NCBI GenBank assembly: GCA_964540855.1
Contig: CAZIOI010000001.1
Location: forward strand, 7,081 to 71,080
Origin: an uncultured Candidatus Saccharibacteria bacterium
GTDB taxonomy: Bacteria > Patescibacteriota > UBA1384 > DTJR01
Length of the DNA stretch: 64,000 bases
Direction: 5' to 3'
The stretch's first letter is position 1. Each line of letters starts with the position of its first letter. The position numbers and the translations under genes are program-made. This document shows positions 11,760-64,000 of the stretch, piece by piece. The notes beneath the pieces were generated by a model. The model searched no databases and had not been told where the DNA came from. It saw only the letters and a list, made by a program, of their open reading frames with translations.

Positions 11760-14705
11760 GTGAATAAAGCACTGGCGTTTTTATCGTGGGCTGGGCGTGT
11801 TGTCGTTTTGGCGTTTGCGATTATTGCTTTTGTCGGCTCCAGTAAAATCGCTCAGGCGCAAAACATGGGCGCCGGTTCCGCTACAGTTTCCGGCACAACA
11901 ACTACTGTCAATGCCGTAGCATCCGGTACTTGGACTGAAGATATAGAGGTCACTTCTGTCGGTAAGGCAGCCGCACGCGCCAGAGAGTTTCTAAACTGGA
12001 CACTATCCATAAGGGAAGCCGGCTTCTCCAGTGACACCAGTGGCTCTCCTCAAGCGCTCCTCAAATTATGGTCAGCCGTCAGAAATATTGTTGTCTTTCT
12101 ATATATAGGAATAATTATAGTTATCGCGTTTGGACTCATCTTGCATTTAGGCTGGGCAGAAAAATCGAGGCGTACGTTGGTTTCTTTGATAATCGTCTTT
12201 GCTCTCACGTTTTTTAGTTTTTCCGCCGAAGTCCTCACTATCAGGATGACCGATAAGCTGCAAGAATCATTTTTTTCAATTCACAAAAGCGGTCAGAGTG
12301 GTCTGACTGCCGATCAGAAACATTTGCGCGCAGAAGATCTGCTAACCGTCGCCTTCAACTATCAATCGTTCACGGGGTATCGCAAAGCAGGTGTCAAATA
12401 CGACGAGTCGGTAAGCACTCATCTTAGATTGGTACGGGCAACTACATATACCAACTATGCGATCGCTTTTTTGTTGATTTTAAGAATCATTATTTTATGG
12501 GGTCTTGTAATTTTTTCGCCGTTCATCCTGCCGTTTTTCGTTTTTCAGGTCACCAAAAAGGTTGCTATTGTTTGGATTAGGGAATTCTTCCGGTGGCTAT
12601 TTTTAGGACCTTTGTTTGCGCTTTTTTTAACAGCTGTACCGTATATTTGGCAAAAAACATCCGTTAATGTAGCCAATACTTATGTCGGTCAAAATGCCCA
12701 CGAAAGCGGTGTTCCGATCGAAATCAACACGAATGTTTTAAGGGGCAGCGGTGCTGAACAAACCGCCAACAATGTTTATCAATCCGGAACAAATCTTCTA
12801 CTGACACCACCAAAAAATACAAATCTTAGTCTGACCGACCAAGATGTAGTGACTAATGGCAATAATCTGACAGAAACAGACACTTACGCCAGATATATTA
12901 TTGCCCTCATGATGATATGGGGAGCGATTCTGTTGCCATTTTTGTTGCTAAGGATAATTTCCGGCTTTTCGGTTGAGATCGGCAAGAGCGTTTCTAATAT
13001 CTGGAACAAGTCAGCTGCTCAACAATACATAAACTCCGTTCAGACAAAAATCTCTCCGCCGCCCGTGAGACCGTCGCCGCGACCCGGGCCGGGGATATAT
13101 AAGGATTATAGAGAAAAAACAACTACAACAACCGTTCCGGCAATCCTCAAGGATCGTTCGAGACTCATAAAAGATCATACTTCTACGAGCTATATCATGG
13201 GTCTGACGGGGATGAAACAAGCCGCGCCGCAAGCAATGGAATTTTTATCTGCAAACAAAAGAAGCCTTGCTGATCTATCTAAGCTGGAGCAGAGCGATCA
13301 GGAACTTAAAGTGGCAAACGAGCTTTTGGATAAGCTAGCCAAACCGGAAATGGTAAAAGATAAGACCGAAGCAGACAAACTTGCCGGTATAAAGCAGGCA
13401 ATTGCCGATAAAGAGTTGACCGGCGACGAACTAGCAAGGGCTGTTCAGTCGGCATTGGCTAGGGACACAAGCAAAATCTCAAACGAAAATGCGCTTGAAC
13501 AGGCAAAGGAAAATGCTCTGCGAAACGCAGTCGAGCAATTCTACAGTCAAACTCAAGTTCAAAACGGTTTAAGACAAAAATTATCTAGCCAAGCAGATTC
13601 GAATGAGCTGGCTAGAAACGCTTTGTCGGCTCTTGATCAGATTGGTTCGTTGAGATCCGCTCTGTCACAAGACAAACTAAGCGGTGAGCAAAAACGCGAG
13701 ATTGAAAATCAAATCGTTGCTGTCAAACATCCTGAGATGGCGACTGACACCAAAGCCAGATCACAGTTTATAGCTCTCAAAAGCGTTCTTGAGACCGGAG
13801 AAAGACTATCCGATCCCCACGCAATAGCCATCAACAAACAGATTCAGTCCATTGCAAATACCTATTATAGACAGAACCCCGAGGCTCGCGAAAAGGCACA
13901 GCAGGATACAGCGATTAGTTATCTAAACAGCCTCAACGCAATCAGACAAGCTATTGCATCCAAGACCGACAGTGGGGCTCAGGCGGCAGTTCGGGCGATA
14001 GATAAGATTACAGCGAAACTGGGTGATCAAACAGCACTTTTGGGCAATATAAAGACAAACGGATTAAAAATTGTTGCGACAAATGCCCTGAAGACAAAAG
14101 ATCTTGACAAACTGGAGCAGGGGGATAAAGAAGAGTTTACAGCCCTCAAAGGACAAGTCGATCAAGGAATCGCCAGTCAAGACCCAAGATTTACCTCTTA
14201 TCAAAAATCAACCGAAGACGTTATAGAACAATCCAAAGACCTCGATCAGGCCGATGCCGGCAATGTCGAAGACCTTAGAACTTTGATGGGAGCTGATGAA
14301 GATTTCGCTCAAGTCAAAAAGATGTGGGAACAATATTATTCAAGCGCACCCGTACCGATAGACCAAGAAATCAAAACTCGCGCCGACTGGATCGCTAGAG
14401 AGAAATCCCTGATGCAGAAGGCTCTGGATGGCCTTCTGTCCGCCGATGCGACAGAGAGGGAAAATGCCCTTAAAAATATCGGCAAGATACTACCTTTTGT
14501 TCTTATGGGTAAATACAAAAATTCTGAGATAGCAAAGTATCTTTTGGCAAAGTTTGATGCTGCCGATACGGTTTATAAACAAACGACAGAGAAAAAAGAA
14601 GAGACAGAAGAAGATCTTGTACTAGTTAAAAAACAGGCTTTGTCAGATAAAAATGAGAATACCATGACGTTGGATGGACCGGATCAGACCAAGCAGGAAC
14701 TATAG
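11760..14705 (+). CDS. Large polytopic membrane protein (signal peptide + ~5 TM + ~600-aa coiled-coil C-terminal domain); paralog of 47440..50433 and 51790..54639; VirB6/TrbL-like topology
   Basis: GTG start at 11760 preceded by GGAGGGG. The signal peptide ends at AQA. There are several hydrophobic helices. The stretch …FQVTKKVAIVWIREFFRWLFLGPLFALFLTAV… aligns with …ALPQTSKVFSRWARVAVVWLTLPILANFILRVV… in the 997-aa protein and with …LPQTQAFFRKWWSYLLIAIFFAPLANFVFFIL… in the 949-aa protein. The C-terminal region is Q/E/K/A-rich. Confidence 0.6.
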   Translation: MNKALAFLSWAGRVVVLAFAIIAFVGSSKIAQAQNMGAGSATVSGTTTTVNAVASGTWTEDIEVTSVGKAAARAREFLNWTLSIREAGFSSDTSGSPQALLKLWSAVRNIVVFLYIGIIIVIAFGLILHLGWAEKSRRTLVSLIIVFALTFFSFSAEVLTIRMTDKLQESFFSIHKSGQSGLTADQKHLRAEDLLTVAFNYQSFTGYRKAGVKYDESVSTHLRLVRATTYTNYAIAFLLILRIIILWGLVIFSPFILPFFVFQVTKKVAIVWIREFFRWLFLGPLFALFLTAVPYIWQKTSVNVANTYVGQNAHESGVPIEINTNVLRGSGAEQTANNVYQSGTNLLLTPPKNTNLSLTDQDVVTNGNNLTETDTYARYIIALMMIWGAILLPFLLLRIISGFSVEIGKSVSNIWNKSAAQQYINSVQTKISPPPVRPSPRPGPGIYKDYREKTTTTTVPAILKDRSRLIKDHTSTSYIMGLTGMKQAAPQAMEFLSANKRSLADLSKLEQSDQELKVANELLDKLAKPEMVKDKTEADKLAGIKQAIADKELTGDELARAVQSALARDTSKISNENALEQAKENALRNAVEQFYSQTQVQNGLRQKLSSQADSNELARNALSALDQIGSLRSALSQDKLSGEQKREIENQIVAVKHPEMATDTKARSQFIALKSVLETGERLSDPHAIAINKQIQSIANTYYRQNPEAREKAQQDTAISYLNSLNAIRQAIASKTDSGAQAAVRAIDKITAKLGDQTALLGNIKTNGLKIVATNALKTKDLDKLEQGDKEEFTALKGQVDQGIASQDPRFTSYQKSTEDVIEQSKDLDQADAGNVEDLRTLMGADEDFAQVKKMWEQYYSSAPVPIDQEIKTRADWIAREKSLMQKALDGLLSADATERENALKNIGKILPFVLMGKYKNSEIAKYLLAKFDAADTVYKQTTEKKEETEEDLVLVKKQALSDKNENTMTLDGPDQTKQEL

Positions 14706-46390: not shown

Positions 46391-46489
46391 TATTCGAGCT
46401 TACTGCAAAAGAAGTCTTATAACAATAATTCAAAAGTAAAATTGTTAGTCAAAATTCTCCAAGTTTAGTCATTCGCGATTTGTTGTGCC

Positions 46490-46612
46490 CCGCGTAGCCC
46501 TGCCTACCGGCAGGCAGGCTTGGCGAGGTGGGGTCAATTCCTACCCCACCTCTCGACAGTCATTCCCGCCCCATCAATTCGTGGGGTAAACTACAGCGGG
46601 AATCTTTTTTAT
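46490..46612 (+). ncRNA. Candidate small structured RNA ending in an intrinsic terminator
   Basis: GC-rich block with consecutive hairpins (CCTGCC…GGCAGG and GGTGGGG…CCCCACC). It ends with the ATTCCCGC…GCGGGAAT stem followed by CTTTTTT at 46604-46610. It is non-coding-looking and lies in a 470-bp divergent intergenic region. Confidence 0.25.
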
Positions 46613-46656
46613 TCAGGCTTCGCTTGAAAGATATTTGCAAGCTAAAGCTTGCTTTT

Positions 46657-46775
46657 ATTTTGCGGTGGTCAGGGGGCTTAATTGCGAAGCAGCCCCCTAG
46701 ACCCCCGCACCCCCTTACCCCTGCACGCTTCATACCAAGGTGTCGCTTTGCGACGATATCTTTTAAATTTTTTCT
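46657..46775 (+). ncRNA. Candidate small structured RNA with SRP-RNA (ffs) domain-IV-like motif
   Basis: Long imperfect GC hairpin at 46661-46709 (UGCGG-U-GGUC-AGGGGGCU…AGCCCCCU-A-GACC-CCGCA). It contains GGUCAGG…GAAGCAGCC, which resembles the conserved GGUCAGG / GGAAGCAGCC elements of bacterial 4.5S/SRP RNA. It ends with the GTCGC-TTT-GCGAC hairpin plus a T-rich tract. Confidence 0.3.
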
Positions 46776-46879
46776 TTATCATTTTAATCTTTAACTTTTG
46801 ATATTTAATTTTGCGTTAACTTGTTCCCGTGTTTTTTAATTCGCATTATTTGGTAGAATTGTAATAGAAAAGGAGGGGT

Positions 46880-47461
46880 CTGTCGCTTTCTAACAGAGGA
46901 AAAATTATCCTTCTATTTTCCGCAGTTATAGTTGTCGGGATTATTGTTTTTGCCTATTTTTACCTTAATCGCGAGGGCTCAAATACTACGACAAACGGGA
47001 CATCTCCCGCAGCCGAAGAGAGTAAAATCGTACTTCAGAGGATTTACGAAAGTCCCCAAGCTTTAAGTTCCGAGACAATCACTCCAAGTAGCGGCGCAAC
47101 CCAGATAGCACCAACCACCAGCCCGACAACAACAGCAGCCAAGCCGACTGCGACCCCGGGGATTTTTGATTATACTGCGAGAGATACCGCCACAGCCGAT
47201 AAAGACACTGTCAAACTGGTTGATGAAATTAAAAAAGAAATCGGCGATAAAGACGTCTGCCAATTGGCAAATATTTCCAATAGCTGGTCAAACCCTGTAG
47301 AGAAAACTGTATGCGGGACAATGAAGTTTGCGGCTGAAAAAGTTTTGGTTCCGATGCTAGAATTTTCCTGTTTCATGTATGCAGGAGCGATGAATCTAAA
47401 TTATGACGCAGATATAACGGCAAATTTTAAGGACAATCAATGCAATTTACAAGACAGATAG
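46880..47461 (+). CDS. Small signal-anchored secreted protein with Thr/Pro-rich linker and 4-Cys C-terminal domain; no in-frame ATG start
   Basis: Open frame from 46868 to 47461. AAAGGAGGGG at 46869-46878 lies just upstream. The only nearby in-frame starts are non-canonical (CTG 46880, ATT 46904). It encodes …IILLFSAVIVVGIIVFAYFYL (anchor), a T/P/A-rich linker and …DVCQLANISNSW…CGTMKF…FSCFMY…NQCNLQDR. The stop overlaps the start of the next gene. Confidence 0.45.
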   Translation: MSLSNRGKIILLFSAVIVVGIIVFAYFYLNREGSNTTTNGTSPAAEESKIVLQRIYESPQALSSETITPSSGATQIAPTTSPTTTAAKPTATPGIFDYTARDTATADKDTVKLVDEIKKEIGDKDVCQLANISNSWSNPVEKTVCGTMKFAAEKVLVPMLEFSCFMYAGAMNLNYDADITANFKDNQCNLQDR

Positions 47462-50433
47462 TCAAAGCATTTATTACTGTAATTATAGTTATAATTGTGG
47501 CATTGGCCGCGCCGAACTTTTTTGGCAAAGACGACAAAATAAATGAGAGTGTATTCCACAAAGAAGATATGCATCTTTCAATTGCATACAGCAGAGCATC
47601 TGCGTACCAATATGGCGACACAACAAATGTAACAAAAGTGTTGGCAAAGCAGTCCGGTAAAAATGGGGAATGGGTCTTTACGATATACAAAATAGCTCTA
47701 TCGTTTGTAAATATTATTGTGGTTTGTTTTTTAATATTTGTCGCTCTTGCCAATATCCTACAGTATGACATTAAAAATTATGCGATAAAGGCTGTCTTGC
47801 CAAAGCTCGTAGGATCAGTCATAGCAGCCAATTTGTCAATGACTATTTTTGTCTTTGCGTCAAAGATCATCGACTCTATGATGGGAATATCAATTTTTAA
47901 ACCGCTCGGGTGGGATTGGTTTTCTTTTATTATTGGGGGGCACGGTTGGCAAATTGGCACAGCCGGAACAATAGGGGTACTCATTGGTCTTTTAGCAAAA
48001 ATTTTTTTGGGTGTCTTCGGGTGGGTTAGCGTGGTCATAGTAGTTATAGGCTTGCTAGCGGCGCTTCTTCTGGCACTATTTGTGTCATTGATCCTTGCGT
48101 TCAGACCGTACGTCGTTCTACTGTGCGTCGCAGTTGCCCCAATCGCGATTGTTTGCTACGCGCTCCCGCAAACCTCAAAAGTATTCAGTAGATGGGCCAG
48201 GGTCGCTGTTGTATGGCTTACCCTGCCAATCCTGGCTAATTTCATCCTACGAGTCGTCATGTTAATCCCCTCTGGAACAAAAATGACTTTGACTTTGGGG
48301 GAATTTGGTCCTGTCAGCGGTATCGTAGGCTTTTTAGTTCCGACAATAGTTAGAGGCGCAGCTCTCCTATTTGTCGCCAGGCTCCCATTTAAGCTTGGGG
48401 ATGATGTGAGCGGATTAATTTCCACATATGGTCGCAAACTCGGGCGTGGCGCCATGGTCGCCAGCGGCCAACTCGCTTATTGGTCTGATCGAAAACAAAA
48501 ACAGAAAGAAGTCGAGGCCGATAATAGAAGCAGGGGGAACACACGCAAAGCATATGAAAGCGGAAGTATTGGTGAAATAGCAAATTTTTATATGGAAAGA
48601 GAAAAGGAAAAAAGAGCAGAAGCATTGAAAAAGCAGGCTGATGGTAAAACTCTAACCAGAGATGAATATGCATATACCATGCTAACTGATCCGGATATCC
48701 GAGCAAGCGCAGAACAAAAAGCGCGAAGCGGTTTGGCAGCTCAAGTCCAATATACGAATCCTAGCGATTACAATGACGCGCTAGTAGAAATGCAAAGCGA
48801 GCAAACCGCACTTCAAAACAAGATTGCAACAAACAAAGCGTTGAATGAAAGAGAGAAAATATTGAGAAAACAAGGCTTCCACACTTTGTCATTAGGCGAC
48901 CTTGAGAAGAAGGCAAAGGAAGAAGTCGCACAACGAAACCGAGAAACAATTTCCGATGAAATTAGCAGAAGAGATGTGGCTGCACAAAAGGAAACCGGAA
49001 CACACAGGGCTTTGGAATATGTCAAAAAAAGCAATTTGTATGGTGTTATGAGCACAATCAAAGAAAACCTTGACTATGACGAAGCAGAGCGCGGTAAAAC
49101 ATTTGCAAAATATTCGTGGTTTGCTGAACAAACCAGAGGTCGATATGCACAAGGAAAATATATGTCGGCTGTTGTCAAGGAAGATCTCGCTGATCTTGGA
49201 ACATCGGAAGAAATGGCGGAATATTTGAAGCCGGCTTTCCAGGCTTTCTACGAGAATGTAGCCAGCGCGATGGGGCAGACAACCGTCACTGATGCTGTAA
49301 AGCTGGAAGCTAACGCTATGTTAAGAAGATACAGGACCCAAGTTAAGGGGCTTAAAGATTATATGCAACACCCATATTTTGATAATATAAAACCCAATAC
49401 AGCGGCAAACATTGTTCAGGGCGATTATGCCCTCAATCAACAATTGGCCAGAGAAGCGCGCGGACGTAACCGACCCGGTCAAGATAGAATTATCGAGGAA
49501 CGCAAACGTGAAATATTTGGCTCCGGCTCGCCAACTACACCGGAGCAAAAACGTATCACCGCGCTGGAACAGCAAAACCAGAGGAGAAGCTTGCTGTTAT
49601 TACAACAGATAGCGAGGCAAACTACCGGTGTCACGCAGAAACAAGCATTTGCCAGGGCAATTGAGTTAGCAGACGAGATGGGCCATGGTCTGGGCGTCGA
49701 TAGTATTGAAGATCTGCCTAGAAGTCACTCCGAATTAAAGGATGTTTCTCACGAGAATATCTATATGACAAAAGTTGCCCTCGCCGCAAGATCAGAAGAA
49801 GGAAGGCGCGTTGCTGCACTTACAGAGAGAATCAGCGGCCAGGAAGATGTCGATGCAATCATGCAATCGCATTATGTTCTGGGTCAAGCCGCAACTAATC
49901 CAAGCAGCGTTTCGCCGGAACTAATCTCTAGAGCAAAAACTGTTATTGGTCAAAAAATGAACATTAACCCCTCTTTGGTTGATGTGGCCAACAGCAATAC
50001 ACTTCTAAAAGCAGCCGAAGCCGCGACCGTTTCTGACCTAGCGGGTCAAAGAACAAAGATTACTGACCCAATAGAGGTTCAATACAGGATTGGCACGCAG
50101 GTCATGAGAGATCGTGCCGTCACCGATACAGAGGCTATTTTACAAGACATCAGGACACAAATCGCAAGTGGCATACAGTCAACGGACATTGATCTTGGAT
50201 CTATTGACACACAGGTTCGCGCCCTCACAGATCCTCACTTGCAACTAGAATTCGGATCGGCATGGACCGGTCAAACAGTAGCTCTAAAAGAACAGGTTAT
50301 TGCCGAGACCTCCAAGCAGTTGCAACAAGCTGTAGCATCCGCTGACTCTGCCCTAGTCGCAGAAGCTGAGTCGCAAGTTCCGATAATGATCTCAGAAACA
50401 TTTAAAAAAATAGCTTCCCAACCAAGGAGTTAG
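47440..50433 (+). CDS. Giant polytopic membrane protein (997 aa): signal peptide, ~6 TM, ~620-aa charged coiled-coil C-terminal domain; VirB6/TrbL-like topology; paralog of 51790..54639 and 11760..14705
   Basis: The signal peptide MQFTRQIVKAFITVIIVIIVALAAPNFFG is followed by several hydrophobic helices. The motif …NYAIKAVLPKLVGSVIAAN… is shared with the 949-aa paralog (…NTYAIKKALPSIIIAIIGG…). The C-terminal half is E/K/Q/R/A-rich. Confidence 0.6.
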   Translation: MQFTRQIVKAFITVIIVIIVALAAPNFFGKDDKINESVFHKEDMHLSIAYSRASAYQYGDTTNVTKVLAKQSGKNGEWVFTIYKIALSFVNIIVVCFLIFVALANILQYDIKNYAIKAVLPKLVGSVIAANLSMTIFVFASKIIDSMMGISIFKPLGWDWFSFIIGGHGWQIGTAGTIGVLIGLLAKIFLGVFGWVSVVIVVIGLLAALLLALFVSLILAFRPYVVLLCVAVAPIAIVCYALPQTSKVFSRWARVAVVWLTLPILANFILRVVMLIPSGTKMTLTLGEFGPVSGIVGFLVPTIVRGAALLFVARLPFKLGDDVSGLISTYGRKLGRGAMVASGQLAYWSDRKQKQKEVEADNRSRGNTRKAYESGSIGEIANFYMEREKEKRAEALKKQADGKTLTRDEYAYTMLTDPDIRASAEQKARSGLAAQVQYTNPSDYNDALVEMQSEQTALQNKIATNKALNEREKILRKQGFHTLSLGDLEKKAKEEVAQRNRETISDEISRRDVAAQKETGTHRALEYVKKSNLYGVMSTIKENLDYDEAERGKTFAKYSWFAEQTRGRYAQGKYMSAVVKEDLADLGTSEEMAEYLKPAFQAFYENVASAMGQTTVTDAVKLEANAMLRRYRTQVKGLKDYMQHPYFDNIKPNTAANIVQGDYALNQQLAREARGRNRPGQDRIIEERKREIFGSGSPTTPEQKRITALEQQNQRRSLLLLQQIARQTTGVTQKQAFARAIELADEMGHGLGVDSIEDLPRSHSELKDVSHENIYMTKVALAARSEEGRRVAALTERISGQEDVDAIMQSHYVLGQAATNPSSVSPELISRAKTVIGQKMNINPSLVDVANSNTLLKAAEAATVSDLAGQRTKITDPIEVQYRIGTQVMRDRAVTDTEAILQDIRTQIASGIQSTDIDLGSIDTQVRALTDPHLQLEFGSAWTGQTVALKEQVIAETSKQLQQAVASADSALVAEAESQVPIMISETFKKIASQPRS

Positions 50434-50434
50434 T

Positions 50435-51793
50435 TTGGAAACAGAAGAGCAAACAACAGACTCCACAGAACAACAGCCGGAAGCAGATTACGGAGTCGGT
50501 CGAAGTGTCGCCGACAGAGTCAGCGAATCAAATGATACTTTTCGTGCCGCCGACAAATTATCCGGTGGTCGTATTGGCAGCGCTACTAAAAAAGCTGGAG
50601 AGGCTTTTGACAAGACAGGATTGGGACAAGGTATTAACAAAGCCCGTCAAGCCGCCAGCAGTGCCAAGAGTGCCGCAACCAAGCAAGTTACCGAGGCAGG
50701 CAAAAAAGTCGCCGGCAAAGCAGTACAAAAAGGCGCCGAGCTTGCTGCCAAAGCAGGAATTTCTGCTGCTACCGGCGCCGCAACAGCTGGCGTCTCCACT
50801 GCTGTTCAGGCAGGATTGGAAGGCATTCAGAAAGCCGCTCAAATAAGCGACAAAATTAGAAAAGCTGTTAAAAGCGCTACCGGCGGACTCATCGATCCGG
50901 ACATTTTTGGTGATCTAAAAGACAAATTAAAGGAGTATTGGAAACAAAATAAATGGAGAATTATCGGCGGCTCGTGTCTTGTTTTCGCTCTTTTGGCGAT
51001 CGCTCCATTTATTATCATGATCGTGATGATTTCAAAATTCTTGTTTTCCGACAATACGGAGCCGACTAATAAGGCGATAATAAACAGCATCAGCTCCCTC
51101 TCATCATCACAAAGGCTATTTTTCACAGGTTCCGGTGATCTGGACGCTATAAAAAACGGCGAGATATCCCAAAACTCGCTCAAGATGATCAATTATTTAG
51201 CCAAAAAACATCAGAGGATAGAGATCAATTACTCGCCCAAGACCGACGAGACATCGACCGGCGCCAACGAACCTTATGAGTTTGATATTGTTTCGGTCGA
51301 TGAGATTCGCTGCAGCGTAAACGGACAAAAAGTCGGATCCGTGCCGATTTATCTTAACTCCAATTACGATTTCGTCTCAGCCGCCAAAAACATCCCCTCA
51401 AACGCCATCTGCGCCAGCGGCTATTACCCGAACATCGAAGCGCAAATAAAATCGGCTTATTTCGACCAGTTTTCGCCGGGCGAATTTCTCGCCGGCGAGA
51501 TCGCAACTCGCGGCAAAATGGTCGCGCAAGAAAAGCTGGCGGAGATCACAGAGGATATATTTAAAGCAAATTCAAACCTTAAAATCAATAGCAGTTCTGA
51601 TGATAGCGTTTTGCCGGCAGCTATCACCATAGACGATAAATACGCTACAATAAATCAGAAGGACAATTCGGCCGGCGTTTTGGTGGTGATGAAAGATAAA
51701 ATTGCGCACTACTATCCAACCGCCGATTCATCAAGCACGGGTGTTCTTAAGTCGACCGGACAAAAATATGGAATACATATAAGTTTCTTATGA
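50435..51793 (+). CDS. Bitopic membrane protein (452 aa): acidic N-terminus, Ala/Lys-rich repeats, single TM, ~240-aa extracytoplasmic domain
   Basis: The N-terminal ~185 aa are low-complexity (KAGEAF…KQVTEAGKKVAGKAVQKGAELAAKAG…). One TM segment (WRIIGGSCLVFALLAIAPFIIMIVMISKFLF). The C-terminal domain has 3 Cys. The start is adjacent to the previous stop, and the stop overlaps the next start (ATGA). Confidence 0.55.
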   Translation: METEEQTTDSTEQQPEADYGVGRSVADRVSESNDTFRAADKLSGGRIGSATKKAGEAFDKTGLGQGINKARQAASSAKSAATKQVTEAGKKVAGKAVQKGAELAAKAGISAATGAATAGVSTAVQAGLEGIQKAAQISDKIRKAVKSATGGLIDPDIFGDLKDKLKEYWKQNKWRIIGGSCLVFALLAIAPFIIMIVMISKFLFSDNTEPTNKAIINSISSLSSSQRLFFTGSGDLDAIKNGEISQNSLKMINYLAKKHQRIEINYSPKTDETSTGANEPYEFDIVSVDEIRCSVNGQKVGSVPIYLNSNYDFVSAAKNIPSNAICASGYYPNIEAQIKSAYFDQFSPGEFLAGEIATRGKMVAQEKLAEITEDIFKANSNLKINSSSDDSVLPAAITIDDKYATINQKDNSAGVLVVMKDKIAHYYPTADSSSTGVLKSTGQKYGIHISFL

Positions 51794-54639
51794 TCAGATT
51801 GATCAAATTTACAGTTATAGTTACGGCAGCTATCGGACTGCTTGTTTTGCCTGCGACAGCCAAGGCAATTCCTTCCGATATAAATTACAAATGGGATAGC
51901 AATGAGTCTCCATTGACCGATGGAGTGAGTGGCACGACCACCAGTGAACAGATATGCCAAGATTTGTTCGCCGCGGATAGCACAAATATTTTTAAAGAAG
52001 TGGTTTGCTCTTTTACTCGACTTGCCGCTTTGTCAATTGCCGACCTCGCCACAGACATTACCTGCTCAATCCAGCAGGTAGGTAACGGCACAAATTATAA
52101 AAGCACTACTTTCTCAAGTAGCTCGGGCAAATGTGAGGAGTCGCCAACAAACCCCTTGGGCGATAAATCCCAAAAAACCGGTTTCTACAGCGACGAACTT
52201 GCGAATTCGACAAGCGCCCTGACTGACTCCCTTTCACCGAGTCAGTCAGCTACTCCATCAGCGGCTTACAAAGGCTTCACAATCGCCAGAAATATTATGG
52301 GGCTTATGGCCGTAGTAGCACTATTTGTCTTTGCCTTTGCTAATATTTTGCACATCGAAGTTAATACATATGCGATCAAAAAGGCTCTCCCATCAATCAT
52401 TATCGCCATTATCGGCGGTGCGCTTTCGATTTATATTGTGTTTTTGCTGTCCAGATTTGTCGATTTCACGTACAGGCTCAATATCTTTTCGCCTTATCAG
52501 GCCTACCATCCAATGCAAAATATCTTCGGCGGATATTTTAATCTCGGGTCGGTTGACCAACTCAAAGATGATAGTGTCAAACTGGTATTCGATGTGGGAT
52601 CAAGCCTGATCGGCGCAAGCGGCGTCAGTTTTTTTGCCGGCGTCTTGGGTTCAATTATGCTGGTTATCCCCGCTCTAGCGACATTTGCCTTCGAATACGT
52701 TCTTTCGCTCAGAGCCTTCGCCGTTCAGATTTTGACAATAATAGCTCCGATCGCCTTCGCTTGCTTGATTTTGCCTCAAACACAAGCGTTTTTCAGAAAA
52801 TGGTGGTCATATTTGTTGATTGCAATCTTTTTTGCACCACTGGCGAACTTTGTATTTTTTATTTTAAACCTTTTTGGATCTTCTTCGAGCGATGTAACAT
52901 CTCTGATGGCACTCTGGTTTTTAAAAACCGTTGCTATTATCTTTTTGATCCGCTTCCCCTTCACGGTCGAAGCAGACACGAAAAAAATTCTTGCAGCCGT
53001 TTCGAAAACAAGCTTTGGCGCGGCGCTTGGACTTAACAGGATTGGCGGCACCGATGTGAAACCACAGAACAAAGAGCAACAGGTTAAATTTGCCAGTATC
53101 GACAAGATAAAAGATATTTCAAAAAATAATCCAAGGGTACTCGCCCCCGCCATAAGGACAAATCAAGCCGGTCAGCTAAGATCGGCCGCGATCGGCAAGC
53201 AAGGCAGACAAGCGATCGCGCCCGCCGGACTGAATAGCTCCATCGAAAAGGCCGTCTCGCAAGCTGCTCAAGACAATGCAAGCCGTTCCGATAATCTGCT
53301 GGTCAAATCTTCGGCAAGTATTGCCAACAGAGCATTCAGAGCCGTTGTGGATCAATCCGATCTTAAACTATGGCGAGATACGAGGCTCATAGAACAGCTC
53401 AAAAATCATAACGGGCAAGTCTTGGACGAACAGGGTGCTGCTATGCGCGCCGATTCGGCGCGCAAGTTGATGAGATTATCGCAGGTCGTGGAAAACGACA
53501 AAATCGCTAACCCCGAGGCGCTAAAAGTGTTGGCGACAAAGGGTGTTCTCGATAATATCCCTATGTCGATAATAAAAAAAGCGATCGATGACGGAATTCT
53601 GCAAAAAAGCGATCTTGCGACAACCTTTGGAGACAACACTAGCAAGGTTATAGAATATATCGATAGCAGCAAACAAACCAGGCAGGGCTTTCTAACCGAT
53701 ACCCAAGCAAAAACATTGATGACTCGAGACCAGAGTGATTACGCAACCGGCTTCAGGGATTTAACTAAGCTTTTCACTGACACGATCAAAGACCCTTCAA
53801 TCTTTCCTCCCCCACCTCCGCCAGTTATAAAAAACATCATTTCACAGATGAGATCGACCGACTCTGATATTTTTGAAAAAAACGGGATGTATTACCTCAA
53901 CCGTCTTGCCCAAATTCAAAAAGCTTCGACAAAAGATATTAGCTCCACCCTTACAAAAACCGGCGTCCAGAATCAGACCGCTTTGGCAATCGCCAAGAAC
54001 CCACGAATCGACTTTTCTGATGCCAAAAAATACACCGACAAGGGTAAGCTAGACTCAAACAGCCTTTCGTTACTCAGAGAAGGATTTTTAAATAGAGACT
54101 TATCCGATAATCTCATCGGCAGTATATCCGCCCTGATGAAAGAGCAAAAAACACTGATTGGCAAAGGGATAACTCAAAAAATTTCCGAGAGCATAAGCAA
54201 AAATCCCGATGGACTTAAACTGTCGGATATCGGCGAAAATATGCGAAAAGTCATTCAGGGGCTACAAAAACCGGCAACGCCGCAGGATATTCAGAAGCTT
54301 GCGGGAGAAGTCGATAAATTTTATCCCGGTGCCGCCCTTAAATCCAGTCTGACCTTAAGCCATGATGACATCCAAGACACATCCAAAAAAGCCGCTGGCA
54401 TATTGGAAACTGTCGAAACTCTAATCCGCTCGGGTATGGATGAAAAATCAATCAACAAAAATCCACAGAAAGCTGTAAATGAAATAGAAAAATCCGTGGC
54501 ACAGGAGATCGAACAAGCGGCTTCCGGCCAAATCGCCAAAGACAGTGAATTTGATACAAAATTATCTAACATATCCAAAAACACGCCGTCTAATACCGGC
54601 TCAAGCATTGCAGACGCTATAACCGCCGGAGCCAAATAA
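51790..54639 (+). CDS. Giant polytopic membrane protein (949 aa): signal peptide, ~140-aa Cys-containing ectodomain, ~6 TM, ~580-aa hydrophilic C-terminal domain; paralog of 47440..50433
   Basis: Signal peptide MIRLIKFTVIVTAAIGLLVLPATAKA. Ectodomain with 5 Cys. The TM block is homologous to the 997-aa protein (…CLILPQTQAFFRKWWSYLL…). The long C-terminus is K/D/S/Q-rich and includes a PPPPPV tract. Confidence 0.6.
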   Translation: MIRLIKFTVIVTAAIGLLVLPATAKAIPSDINYKWDSNESPLTDGVSGTTTSEQICQDLFAADSTNIFKEVVCSFTRLAALSIADLATDITCSIQQVGNGTNYKSTTFSSSSGKCEESPTNPLGDKSQKTGFYSDELANSTSALTDSLSPSQSATPSAAYKGFTIARNIMGLMAVVALFVFAFANILHIEVNTYAIKKALPSIIIAIIGGALSIYIVFLLSRFVDFTYRLNIFSPYQAYHPMQNIFGGYFNLGSVDQLKDDSVKLVFDVGSSLIGASGVSFFAGVLGSIMLVIPALATFAFEYVLSLRAFAVQILTIIAPIAFACLILPQTQAFFRKWWSYLLIAIFFAPLANFVFFILNLFGSSSSDVTSLMALWFLKTVAIIFLIRFPFTVEADTKKILAAVSKTSFGAALGLNRIGGTDVKPQNKEQQVKFASIDKIKDISKNNPRVLAPAIRTNQAGQLRSAAIGKQGRQAIAPAGLNSSIEKAVSQAAQDNASRSDNLLVKSSASIANRAFRAVVDQSDLKLWRDTRLIEQLKNHNGQVLDEQGAAMRADSARKLMRLSQVVENDKIANPEALKVLATKGVLDNIPMSIIKKAIDDGILQKSDLATTFGDNTSKVIEYIDSSKQTRQGFLTDTQAKTLMTRDQSDYATGFRDLTKLFTDTIKDPSIFPPPPPPVIKNIISQMRSTDSDIFEKNGMYYLNRLAQIQKASTKDISSTLTKTGVQNQTALAIAKNPRIDFSDAKKYTDKGKLDSNSLSLLREGFLNRDLSDNLIGSISALMKEQKTLIGKGITQKISESISKNPDGLKLSDIGENMRKVIQGLQKPATPQDIQKLAGEVDKFYPGAALKSSLTLSHDDIQDTSKKAAGILETVETLIRSGMDEKSINKNPQKAVNEIEKSVAQEIEQAASGQIAKDSEFDTKLSNISKNTPSNTGSSIADAITAGAK

Positions 54640-54640
54640 T

Positions 54641-56098
54641 ATGACAGAACAAGAACAATCAGGACAAACTCCGCCGCCGGAACAAGAAAATCCTCCCGAG
54701 GCAACGCCTACGGTTGAGCCCGAAGAAGCTGAGAACCTGACGCAAGAAAACCAAGAAGGGCTGGGTGATCAAAACGAAAGCGAGGTAACGCTAGCGCTTC
54801 GCGAAGCGTTTTTATCCAAAGCGGAACAAGATACCGATATGGAGGGGCTTGCTGGTGCAATGGATTCCTTTATCGACAAAGGTGGTTTCTCTCCAGGTGA
54901 GCTGGACTCTCTGGTGCGAGATGTCTTGGAAGAAAAATCTGCAGTCCTAGGCATAGACAAAGCGCAAGCTGAAACTCTGGCAGGGGAAATTATCTCGATT
55001 GAAGAAGCACTCATTACTCCCTTAAAATCCGAGTTGCCTGACACAAAAGCAATTTCATCTGTCAGAGAATCTTTGTATCAATTAGCATTAAAAAATATAA
55101 TCTCCGGAGAAAAAGTCTGTAGCTTGGTTACATCGATAAAGTTTAGAGAGAATCCGGGGGAAGAAGTTGGTGAACATGCCCAAGCGCTCCACGGTATGTC
55201 GTGCGTATATTTGGTCAATGGTAATTCGCGAGAAATCTATATCTACGGTCCATTTATAAAAGAGAGTAAAACCGCCCAGAGAACCATCATTAGCCACGAA
55301 ATCGGTCACCTTTTGGCGGAATCGACGAATCTTTTTGATTTTGAGCAATATGCAAAGTTTAAGGAATTTGCTCAAAATCCGACTGATGAAAATATTGCTC
55401 TTATGCAAGCGGAAAATCCGCAATTTGCGTATCTTCTACAGGTCATCAAAGAACCAACCGCTCATCTGCCGATGTGGAACCAATATATTAGGGGAAGACT
55501 CAAAAAACTCGAGACTATTTCGCAGCCCGATCAGTTGGCAAAAGAAAGAGTTGCTGTTGCAAAGGAGCTGGTCGCCGAGATGATCGGATCATACCTCTGC
55601 GCCGGTGAAAGCAACGAGGCTTATTTTATAGATCAAATAAAATATTCAAAACCCGAGGATGTTATCGCTTACATTAAGGGTTTGTGCGGCTGTGATCAGG
55701 ATGATCAATTCGTAGCATTTTGCCGACAAAACGGCGTTGATCTTGCCGCCTTAAGAGACGGTAGTTCATCCGAAATCATCAGAAAGCTCTCAGAAATCCC
55801 GCAATTGCAGATAGTATTTAAGTCGAGCGCTTCTTGGCGCGAGATGCTTGCAAACAGTCTATCGGACAGAGGCACGAGACTGGAAACTAACGGAAAGACG
55901 GATGCTATTGGGGAAGATTATGATGATGACGGATTTATAGGAACAGATGGGGAAAGTCTGGCTCAATCCTATACTATGGCGCAGCGCGCCGGCGGCACTC
56001 AAGCCGGAGAAAAATCGGAAAACGCTTTTGAAAAAGTGTGGGATTTTCTGACAGGAAACGCCGCAAGAACACCCGGTGCGACTAAGAAGGCCGCCTAG
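54641..56098 (+). CDS. Acidic soluble protein (485 aa) with HEIGH (HExxH) zinc-metallopeptidase-like motif, ImmA/IrrE-like context
   Basis: No TM segment. The N-terminus is E/P/Q-rich. The motif …QRTIISHEIGHLLAEST… fits the R-x-[FT]-x3-HE-x-GH-LL pattern of ImmA/IrrE (COG2856) zincins. The start is 2 nt after the previous stop. Confidence 0.5.
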   Translation: MTEQEQSGQTPPPEQENPPEATPTVEPEEAENLTQENQEGLGDQNESEVTLALREAFLSKAEQDTDMEGLAGAMDSFIDKGGFSPGELDSLVRDVLEEKSAVLGIDKAQAETLAGEIISIEEALITPLKSELPDTKAISSVRESLYQLALKNIISGEKVCSLVTSIKFRENPGEEVGEHAQALHGMSCVYLVNGNSREIYIYGPFIKESKTAQRTIISHEIGHLLAESTNLFDFEQYAKFKEFAQNPTDENIALMQAENPQFAYLLQVIKEPTAHLPMWNQYIRGRLKKLETISQPDQLAKERVAVAKELVAEMIGSYLCAGESNEAYFIDQIKYSKPEDVIAYIKGLCGCDQDDQFVAFCRQNGVDLAALRDGSSSEIIRKLSEIPQLQIVFKSSASWREMLANSLSDRGTRLETNGKTDAIGEDYDDDGFIGTDGESLAQSYTMAQRAGGTQAGEKSENAFEKVWDFLTGNAARTPGATKKAA

Positions 56099-56107
56099 GA
56101 GATTTCC

Positions 56108-63655: not shown

Positions 63656-64000
63656 TTATAATCCAAATCTTTTTCTAAGCGAAGTATCATCATCGTTTTT
63701 TACGCTTGTCGCTTCTAGAAAATTCACATATTTTTCCACGCCACATGCATAACGTAGATCATCGAGGGCGTCAAAATCCGCAAATGGGCAGACAAAGACA
63801 CTGTTTTGGAGCTTTACAAATCCATTCCTCATCAAATGAGATCTAAGCATGTCTCGGCCGCCTCTCAACCTTTCTGGGATATCAAAAATGACAACTCGCC
63901 ACTTTCCATCCCATTTGCCATTTTTTTGAGATTTATTTTGAAAATTCAAAAATTTGATTTTTCTTTTGCCTTTGGGGGTGATTAAAAAACCACTCTCCTG
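63656..64000 (-). CDS. PaaX_C-like domain protein (N-terminus beyond window edge)
   Basis: …WDGKWRVVIFDIPERLRGGRDMLRSHLMRNGFVKLQNSVFVCPF… matches the W-G-W…FDIPE…R..LR..L…GF…SVW/F pattern of the PaaX C-terminal domain. The reading frame stays open to position 64000. The track start is a TTG. Confidence 0.5.
   Translation of the reverse strand, partial: QESGFLITPKGKRKIKFLNFQNKSQKNGKWDGKWRVVIFDIPERLRGGRDMLRSHLMRNGFVKLQNSVFVCPFADFDALDDLRYACGVEKYVNFLEATSVKNDDDTSLRKRFGL

Follow-up and report, generated by a model that had tools for sequence, protein, structure and literature searches.

A 64-kb stretch of a Patescibacteria contig (CAZIOI010000001.1; hereafter the window), from an ultra-small bacterium of CPR/Berkelbacteria-like type, contains a five-gene operon, g1 to g5 (46880-56098, + strand), in which two giant VirB6/TrbL-like membrane proteins, g2 and g4, are encoded together with three smaller, lineage-specific proteins. 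We consider it probable that this operon is the VirB6 module of a Patescibacteria-type apparatus resembling a type IV secretion system (T4SS), related to the MPF-FATA conjugation machinery and encoded apart from its ATPase; by analogy, it is plausible that the ATPases are encoded elsewhere in the genome. Few machines of Patescibacteria have been shown to be indispensable to their epibiotic way of life, and the T4SS-like system is one of them; both its transported cargo and the role of its giants are unknown (PMC10633639, PMC12857230). The type of system and the giant VirB6 homologues of Patescibacteria are already published. New here are the fixed five-gene operon of Berkelbacteria, its split or fused ectodomain, the g3 family, a zincin family with a terminal motif and a conserved CTG start. 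The operon represents a compact conserved module, in which two VirB6-like giants are kept with three fixed partners, apart from ATPase genes.

Calling of open reading frames (ORFs) with translation table 11 gave four long + strand ORFs (g2 to g5) in tight series, with an open frame (g1) just ahead of them, in agreement with the five co-directional genes of an earlier, preliminary description of this DNA. At the junctions, g1 and g2 overlap by 22 nt, g2 and g3 are separated by a 1-nt gap, g3 and g4 share a 4-nt ATGA overlap, and g4 and g5 are again separated by 1 nt; the two overlaps are those described before, whereas the two junctions given as 0 nt are in fact the 1-nt gaps. This junction spacing points to translational coupling of the five genes, which supports reading them as one VirB6 module. 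An alternative genetic code was considered and found to be unneeded, as all genes read through in table 11, with TGA as the stop codon in 7 of 47 ORFs.

The giants and their relatives

g2 (47440-50433, + strand; 997 residues) is predicted to be an extended VirB6/TrbL-like protein with an N-terminal transmembrane (TM) segment, a short ecto segment and a polytopic block (about residues 60-340), after which comes a C-terminal domain of about 650 residues, charged and free of Cys. g4 (51790-54639, + strand; 949 residues) is of the same predicted type and begins with a signal peptide and a 4-Cys ectodomain (about residues 26-165). Residues 166-391 form its polytopic block, and the C-terminal domain that follows, about 550 residues long, is charged and lacks Cys. 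In BLASTP the two giants aligned at E=2e-22 with 24% identity over about 290 residues, confined to the membrane block, and no similarity between their C-terminal domains was detectable. The earlier view of the giants as paralogs is thus correct for the membrane block and does not extend to the C-terminal domains, whose sizes also fall outside the 580-620 residues previously given. The motifs N.YAIK..LP and LPQT..F.RW, already pointed out as common to both giants, were found in each and coincide with invariant columns of the family alignment (Y194, K197, P201, P329, F335 and W338).

Similarity of the giants to TrbL/VirB6 recurred across the family. g4 matched Pfam TrbL (PF04610) over residues 254-370 at E=2.6e-4 and 21.3 bits, which is below the 25.9-bit cut-off. 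Among 38 g4 homologues gathered from a database of 5.8 billion proteins, 28 gave a TrbL match at E<=0.01 and no other family recurred. Precomputed annotations place PF04610 or PF19590 (TrbL_3) on some homologues, one of which is named 'type IV secretion system protein' by NCBI, and PF19590 is carried by the g2 orthologue of L001, one of 50 loci (designated by L-numbers) returned by genome and metagenome scans. The hidden Markov model (HMM) of the g4 family matched g2 at E=6.4e-45 over HMM positions 145-495, and positions 265-406 of the g4-family profile aligned with residues 110-263 of TrwI, the structurally solved VirB6 of R388 (7o3v_F), in the last TM segments (E=0.0058). A tblastn comparison of the g4 membrane block with PLSDB plasmids gave a non-significant best E of 0.6; these matches lay on genes annotated 'type IV secretion system protein' and are not counted as evidence by themselves. 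The VirB6/TrbL-like character first proposed for the giants is supported by the TrbL matches in the orthologues, by the TrwI profile match and by Saccharibacteria homologues that lie beside PrgI/VirB3 and VirB4. These comparisons show g2 and g4 to be, at the level of profile similarity, remote but reproducible extended members of the TrbL/VirB6 superfamily.

Hydropathy averaged over the g4 family gave hydrophobic segments at 166-188, 198-226, 281-331 (one or two TM segments), 342-361 and 372-391, with a 54-residue outside loop at 227-280 and with the signal peptide and Cys ectodomain N-terminal of the TM block. These averages reproduce the VirB6-type topology, in which the N-terminus lies outside, the TM segments number at least five and a central loop is extracytoplasmic. 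The tails contain no Cys in 549 (g4) and 652 (g2) residues, conserved Cys residues are found in the ectodomains, and Lys/Arg residues flank the last TM segment. The Cys-free tails and the Lys/Arg residues beside the last TM segment favour a cytoplasmic location of the tail side, as in classical VirB6, and we infer that the C-terminal tails of both giants are cytoplasmic. The overall likeness is to VirB6/TrbL proteins (PF04610, PF19590; TrwI of R388, PDB 7o3v), which likewise span the inner membrane several times and have the N-terminus and a central loop on its extracytoplasmic side, and the profile similarity lies in the last TM segments. Compared with TrwI-type VirB6, however, the window giants have three times the size and carry, in addition, a Cys ectodomain and a 550-650-residue tail; they fall under the curated Pfam threshold, are unlinked to VirB4/VirB5/VirB8 genes and are chromosomal in a monoderm. 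Separately, residues 690-841 of g4 (window ~53857-54312), in the C-terminal tail, gave a weak and possibly compositional profile match to streptococcal metal-binding adhesin lipoproteins (7lm7 and related, E=0.002).

The same membrane block is found in Saccharibacteria-type loci, where it occurs in tandem arrays of 2-5 giants of 640-1270 residues with variable N-terminal ectodomains and C-terminal tails. The arrays of L012 and L013 are followed by a PrgI-family (VirB3-like, E=1.7e-14) protein and a VirB4-type ATPase (TraG P-loop, E=2.5e-26), and that of L015 by M23 peptidases and a lysozyme (wall hydrolases). Genomic linkage of a VirB6-like gene to other T4SS genes was absent from the window and from its orthologous loci and was seen only for the giants of the Saccharibacteria-type loci L009, L012, L013, L014, L048 and L051, and for L044. 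Three to five tandem VirB6-like paralogues were observed in L015, L017, L018, L020-L022, L049, L051 and L052, with a membrane block of widely varying position and N-terminal ectodomains of 100-530 residues. In their variability, the giant arrays of Saccharibacteria recall the pilin arrays of these systems, which are reported to vary as well.

In the T4SS cluster of Southlakia epibionticum, SEML1_0013 (1088 residues, TrbL/VirB6), SEML1_0012 (NTF2-like) and SEML1_0011 (998 residues, 'T4SS protein') lie beside PrgI and VirB4 (PMC10633639), and both giants are essential for epibiotic growth in transposon sequencing (PMC10633639 Tables S1, S2). Compared by its published description, the SEML1_0004-0019 cluster of strain ML1 (Wang et al. 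2023) resembles the operon in its two giants of about 1000 residues, VirB6/TrbL-like with large helical C-terminal domains, and in the gene for a small wall-side protein between them (SEML1_0013/0012/0011 against g2/g3/g4). Both are chromosomal loci of monoderm Patescibacteria, and homology of the membrane block at family level was shown for the giants of the Saccharibacteria loci. The S. epibionticum giants, however, have as immediate neighbours PrgI, VirB4, wall hydrolases and a pilin array, none of which is found in the 64 kb of the window. The middle protein of that cluster is NTF2-like and non-essential, whereas g3 shows no NTF2 similarity and has a 175-residue cytoplasmic part. Neither a g1-like split ectodomain gene nor a g5-like zincin is reported for the S. 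epibionticum cluster.

PrgH (pCF10), TcpH (pCW3) and ConG (ICEBs1) are large monoderm VirB6-like subunits with an added hydrophilic domain. Set beside these Gram-positive proteins by description, the window giants share with them a monoderm system that has a large VirB6-like subunit. In a published survey, the PrgH profile was matched by 12 of 480 patescibacterial VirB6 homologues, of which 304 were near virB4 and 176 were not, with hardly any VirB8; VirB4 was present in 2,417 of 3,035 Patescibacteria assemblies (~80%) and grouped with the MPF-FATA class, and the patescibacterial T4SS was reported as vertically inherited (PMC12102498). The four VirB6 paralogues of Ehrlichia chaffeensis (cited in PMC12857230), compared by description, resemble the giants as tandem, much enlarged VirB6 paralogues of a reduced-genome, host-dependent bacterium with scattered T4SS islands. 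These Rickettsiales differ in being an unrelated diderm lineage with an MPF-T system, and the extensions are not homologous as far as tested. The role of 'extended VirB6' domains was called unknown in the 2025 review (PMC12857230). VirB6 homologues of the kind described here score under the usual profile thresholds, and some of them carry the annotation of a 'DMT' or 'ABC' permease, so surveys centred on virB4 neighbourhoods under-count them.

Partner proteins g1, g3 and g5

The first gene of the operon, g1 (46880-47461, + strand; 193 residues), encodes a predicted signal-anchored protein in which a linker rich in Thr, Pro and Ser connects an N-terminal TM segment to a 4-Cys ectodomain at the C-terminus. 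The frame 46868-47461 is open and contains no ATG, GTG or TTG before 47264; position 46868, where the preliminary description began the gene, is only the first codon after a stop. Alignment of the orthologues placed the start at the CTG at 46880, 3 nt downstream of AGGAGG, which is the conserved start position: AGGAGG-N3-CTG is present also at L025:952, L026:3049 and L003 (~4923), and other clades have TTG or GTG at that codon. A low g1:g2 ratio may be a consequence of the CTG start.

When the g1 family was aligned, profile against profile, to the first 165 residues of the g4 family, hhalign gave a probability of 85% (E=6e-6, 92 columns) and matched all four Cys as well as an N-Y motif. Reciprocally, the g4-family HMM matched g1 orthologues at E=1e-5 to 5e-3. 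g1 is therefore homologous to the N-terminal Cys ectodomain of g4, and g1 and g2 together represent a split version of the g4 architecture. As far as alignments of this kind can tell, the operon is shown to consist of two copies of one unit, namely an ectodomain, a VirB6 membrane block and a large tail. The ectodomain is able to exist as its own polypeptide, which makes the unit modular. In six loci (L004, L027, L028, L032, L036 and L038) the last 130-210 residues of the g2 tail form a separate ORF; taken together with the fission or fusion of g1 and g4, these split ORFs indicate that parts of the giants are separable.

g3 (50435-51793, + strand; 452 residues, TTG start) lies between the two giants and is predicted to be bitopic, with an Ala/Gly/Lys-rich cytoplasmic part (1-175), a single hydrophobic segment (181-199) and an alpha/beta ectodomain of about 250 residues. 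Conserved Cys pairs occur solely after the hydrophobic segment, and H259, D289, C293 and C326 are invariant in the family. The g3 family is restricted to this operon type, and no match to it was found in Pfam, NCBIfam or PDB sequences. The VirB8/VirB10/TcpC-like nature suggested for g3 in the preliminary description stands with regard to bitopic topology, with the one TM segment at 181-199, but no VirB8 or NTF2 similarity was detected, and topology alone defines neither family. The ectodomain was tested for the NTF2-like fold of VirB8, TcpC and PrgL, which it did not show. The LAS/Hedgehog-DD-peptidase motif (H-x(3-6)-D ... H) was also considered, and the invariant g3 residues are out of line with its spacing. 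g3 resembles VirB8-type partners only in its bitopic topology and its place between two giants.

The last gene, g5 (54641-56098, + strand; 485 residues), encodes an acidic, predicted cytoplasmic protein with a disordered N-terminus, an HEIGH sequence at 219-223, a candidate third ligand at E309 and a disordered C-terminal linker ending in W-x-F-L-T-G. No TM segment was found, and g5 was recognised correctly at the outset as a soluble protein with HEIGH. In the g5 structure model the HExxH helix follows a mixed beta-sheet and a candidate third zinc ligand (E309) lies downstream, as in zincins; modelling thus shows a predicted zincin-type metallopeptidase fold with an intact HExxH. The model was likened to Certhrax (7.7), proabylysin (7.0), BlaR1 (7.0), a type III secretion protease (6.7), PepO (6.6), and PPEP-3 and PPEP-2 (6.4 each). 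Within the family H219 and E220 are invariant, and H223 and E309 are nearly so.

An exhaustive profile search of 1.84 billion representatives returned only 37 relatives of g5, and no membership in Pfam, NCBIfam or PDB sequence families was found. None of the named peptidase families M34, M78, M13 and M35 was reached at its curated threshold; the weak, isolated matches were to M78 (E=0.17) and, by one family member each, to Aspzincin_M35 (3e-4) and M13 (0.016). Weak matches to OSCP and to a T7 capsid assembly protein were judged compositional. Compared with the lethal-factor-like/minigluzincin zincins (lethal factor N-domain, PPEP-2, PPEP-3, proabylysin and the type III secretion protease), g5 shares no sequence family, has long helical N- and C-terminal additions and the C-terminal W-x-F-L-T-G, and is cytoplasmic and operon-coupled to a VirB6-like gene. 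g5 is a candidate processing enzyme, adaptor or cargo, and is amenable to testing.

At the C-terminus of g5 (window 56030-56095) the motif W-x-[FWL]-[LIV]-T-G stands 3-15 residues from the end, behind the disordered, Ser/Gly-rich linker, and it is kept in a distant g5 copy beside a giant in L008 (labelled Saccharibacteria). By its sequence the motif looks like a docking or export peptide. In other Berkelbacteria (L010:9455-14328, L046:7440-12352 and L045) a g2-like giant of about 1040 residues lies between RNase J and DUF2207 genes, and the giant of L010 and L046 is followed by a 170-residue protein and a 406-residue HELSH protein that is a remote g5 homologue (HMM E=1e-5). The presence of this homologue behind a differently placed giant indicates that the pairing of giant and zincin recurs outside the five-gene operon.

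Competing readings of the operon

If the operon is a VirB6 module, the membrane blocks of g2 and g4 would probably form or line a channel or platform in the cytoplasmic membrane, like VirB6/TrwI at the base of the stalk in R388, and the Cys ectodomains would project into the wall or the cell-contact zone. The Lys/Glu-rich, Cys-free C-terminal domains, which are probably cytoplasmic, would be docking sites for substrates or for a VirB4-type ATPase whose gene lies elsewhere. g3 would be the membrane-anchored, wall-side partner, in the position that the NTF2-like protein of S. epibionticum occupies between the giants. For g5, two roles may be considered: a protease that its C-terminal motif anchors to the giants, or a protein that the machine transports.

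Several observations weigh against this assignment. VirB4, VirB3/PrgI, TrsD, VirD4 and a VirB2-like pilin were found neither among the scanned ORFs of the 64-kb window nor in any Berkelbacteria-type locus; with no T4SS core gene in these loci, the functional link to a secretion ATPase comes only from homology to Saccharibacteria. The Pfam scan, which took in every window ORF of at least 200 residues, also returned no VirB11 ATPase, relaxase, integrase or pilin family, and the family scan confirms the earlier remark that the window holds no VirB4/VirD4 ATPase, relaxase or pilin. g2 has no direct Pfam match, the window proteins all lie under the curated TrbL threshold, the TrwI match is weak (E=0.006), and no similarity of g3 to any T4SS component was found. 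The structure models of g3 and g5 derive from shallow alignments and are of moderate confidence. The TM segments may number five or six, and the side on which the C-terminal domains lie depends on this number.

We regard one alternative as unlikely, yet as the most serious of the competitors: that the operon encodes a stand-alone envelope complex, in which VirB6-derived proteins have been repurposed without VirB4, either for a structure at the surface or in contact with the host or for a passive conduit, with g1 and g3 as wall-side subunits and g5 as a cytoplasmic maturation protease. The operon is self-contained and coupled, is never beside VirB4, PrgI or pilins in about 15 Berkelbacteria-type loci, and adjoins a large surface-polysaccharide cluster; g1, g3 and g5 are without counterparts in known T4SSs, and other orphan giants occur among Berkelbacteria housekeeping genes (L010, L019 and window 11760-14705). 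In the sister lineage, however, members of the same family are encoded within the VirB4 cluster and are essential along with it. Scattered T4SS genes have precedents, among them those of Rickettsia and the 176 of 480 VirB6 homologues of Patescibacteria that are not near virB4 (PMC12102498), and the cited literature yielded no known example of a VirB6 that works independently of VirB4. We are more doubtful still about a bolder proposal, in which the Berkelbacteria VirB6 lineage is an autonomous, duplicated 'ectodomain-channel-tail' machine with its own wall-side protein and a cytoplasmic zincin that docks on the tails through W-x-F-L-T-G or is exported into the host bacterium as a protease effector. 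Were this true, the operon would represent a VirB4-independent or loosely coupled host-interface apparatus and would supply the essential T4SS of Patescibacteria with its first candidate for an effector or a processing enzyme.

The preferred reading as a T4SS-like VirB6 module also has to be set against two readings that we consider highly improbable, one in which a mobile element (an integrative conjugative element) left the operon behind or carries it as cargo, which would make it an accessory island, and one in which the giants are ABC-2 or DMT permeases and the operon serves solute uptake or export. The mobile-element reading draws on VirB6 genes being typical of conjugative elements and on the unusual, unique block in the upstream intergenic region. 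The closest public relatives are metagenome-assembled genomes labelled Candidatus Berkelbacteria, a few of them deposited as Saccharibacteria, and the order wzx(-) / g1 g2 g3 g4 g5 / proS(-) is kept in all Berkelbacteria-type loci with enough flank, down to about 36-40% g4 identity. This conserved order shows the five-gene block to be a vertically inherited core locus of a Berkelbacteria-like lineage, not an island, and the accessory status previously suggested is not borne out, as the wzx-proS position is kept in all relatives with enough flank and the GC-rich block is unique to this genome. The mobile-element reading was rejected on synteny, with flanks and gene order identical in relatives down to that level of protein identity; furthermore, the operon does not stand out from the window in GC content, integrase, relaxase and tRNA genes as well as repeats are absent, and vertical inheritance has been described for the patescibacterial T4SS (PMC12102498). 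The transporter reading draws on the name 'DMT family transporter' given by NCBI to orthologue P0011, on KEGG K01992 (ABC-2 permease) for the S. epibionticum giants, and on a pair of ATP-binding-cassette (ABC) ATPase and FtsX permease genes past proS in L001. An ABC-type permease family, named in the preliminary description as a result that would refute it, was looked for in g2 and g4, and no ABC-2, DMT or other transporter family was found at E<=1 in Pfam or NCBIfam. No transporter family was found in the 38 orthologues either, in which TrbL was the sole recurrent family; the operon contains no ABC gene, and 550-650-residue tails with Cys ectodomains are untypical of transporters.

Surroundings of the operon

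The neighbouring genes have housekeeping roles or serve envelope biosynthesis; they encode RNase J, PNPase, Clp ATPase, PheS, PheT, Mur ligase, FemAB, TsaD, H+-pyrophosphatase, ProS, S6, SSB, EF-P and Ndk, and the polysaccharide cluster next to the operon consists of glycosyltransferase, Wzy and flippase genes. GC content is even throughout the window, and that of the operon is like the rest. No tRNA or tmRNA was found in the window with ARAGORN, and no Rfam family was found in the whole window or in a permissive scan of the intergenic block, where a tmRNA match reached only E=0.23. PADLOC returned no anti-phage defence match for the five operon proteins or for the 981-residue protein described below.

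A cluster of GC-rich hairpins (46478-46745) occupies the divergent wzx/g1 intergenic region. The structured nature of this block, noted before, was confirmed by RNA folding, where it was much more stable than its shuffled versions (+ strand, z = -6.2; - strand, z = -4.6); one of its hairpins (46637-46652) is followed by a T-run. No copy of the block was found elsewhere in the window or in the orthologous loci, whose wzx/g1 spacer is much shorter. Downstream of it and just 5' of the g1 ribosome-binding site, an extended -10 promoter-like element, TGGTAGAAT (46851-46859, + strand), was read from the sequence, its function being presumed; TGGTATAAT stands at the equivalent site before g1 in L032 and L038. 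At the other end of the operon, convergent proS was located as previously described, with the stops of g5 and proS 9 nt apart (56099-56107) and no terminator-like hairpin between them.

A further giant, of 981 residues, is encoded at 11760-14705 (+ strand). Built like g2 and g4, it begins with a signal or TM segment and a short ecto part; a polytopic block containing ...FFRW... comes next, and then a charged, Cys-free tail of about 550 residues. In BLASTP it matched g4 at 2e-4 and, at 6e-8, the metagenomic giant of L044, behind which lie PrgI-like and TrsD-position genes. Neither the g4-family HMM nor jackhmmer recovered the 981-residue protein, so that its assignment comes from pairwise BLAST, and we tentatively regard it as a probable third, very divergent VirB6-like paralogue. 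At the extreme end of the window, a small PaaX_M/Cas2-like protein (E=1.7e-22) is encoded at 63659-63949 (- strand).

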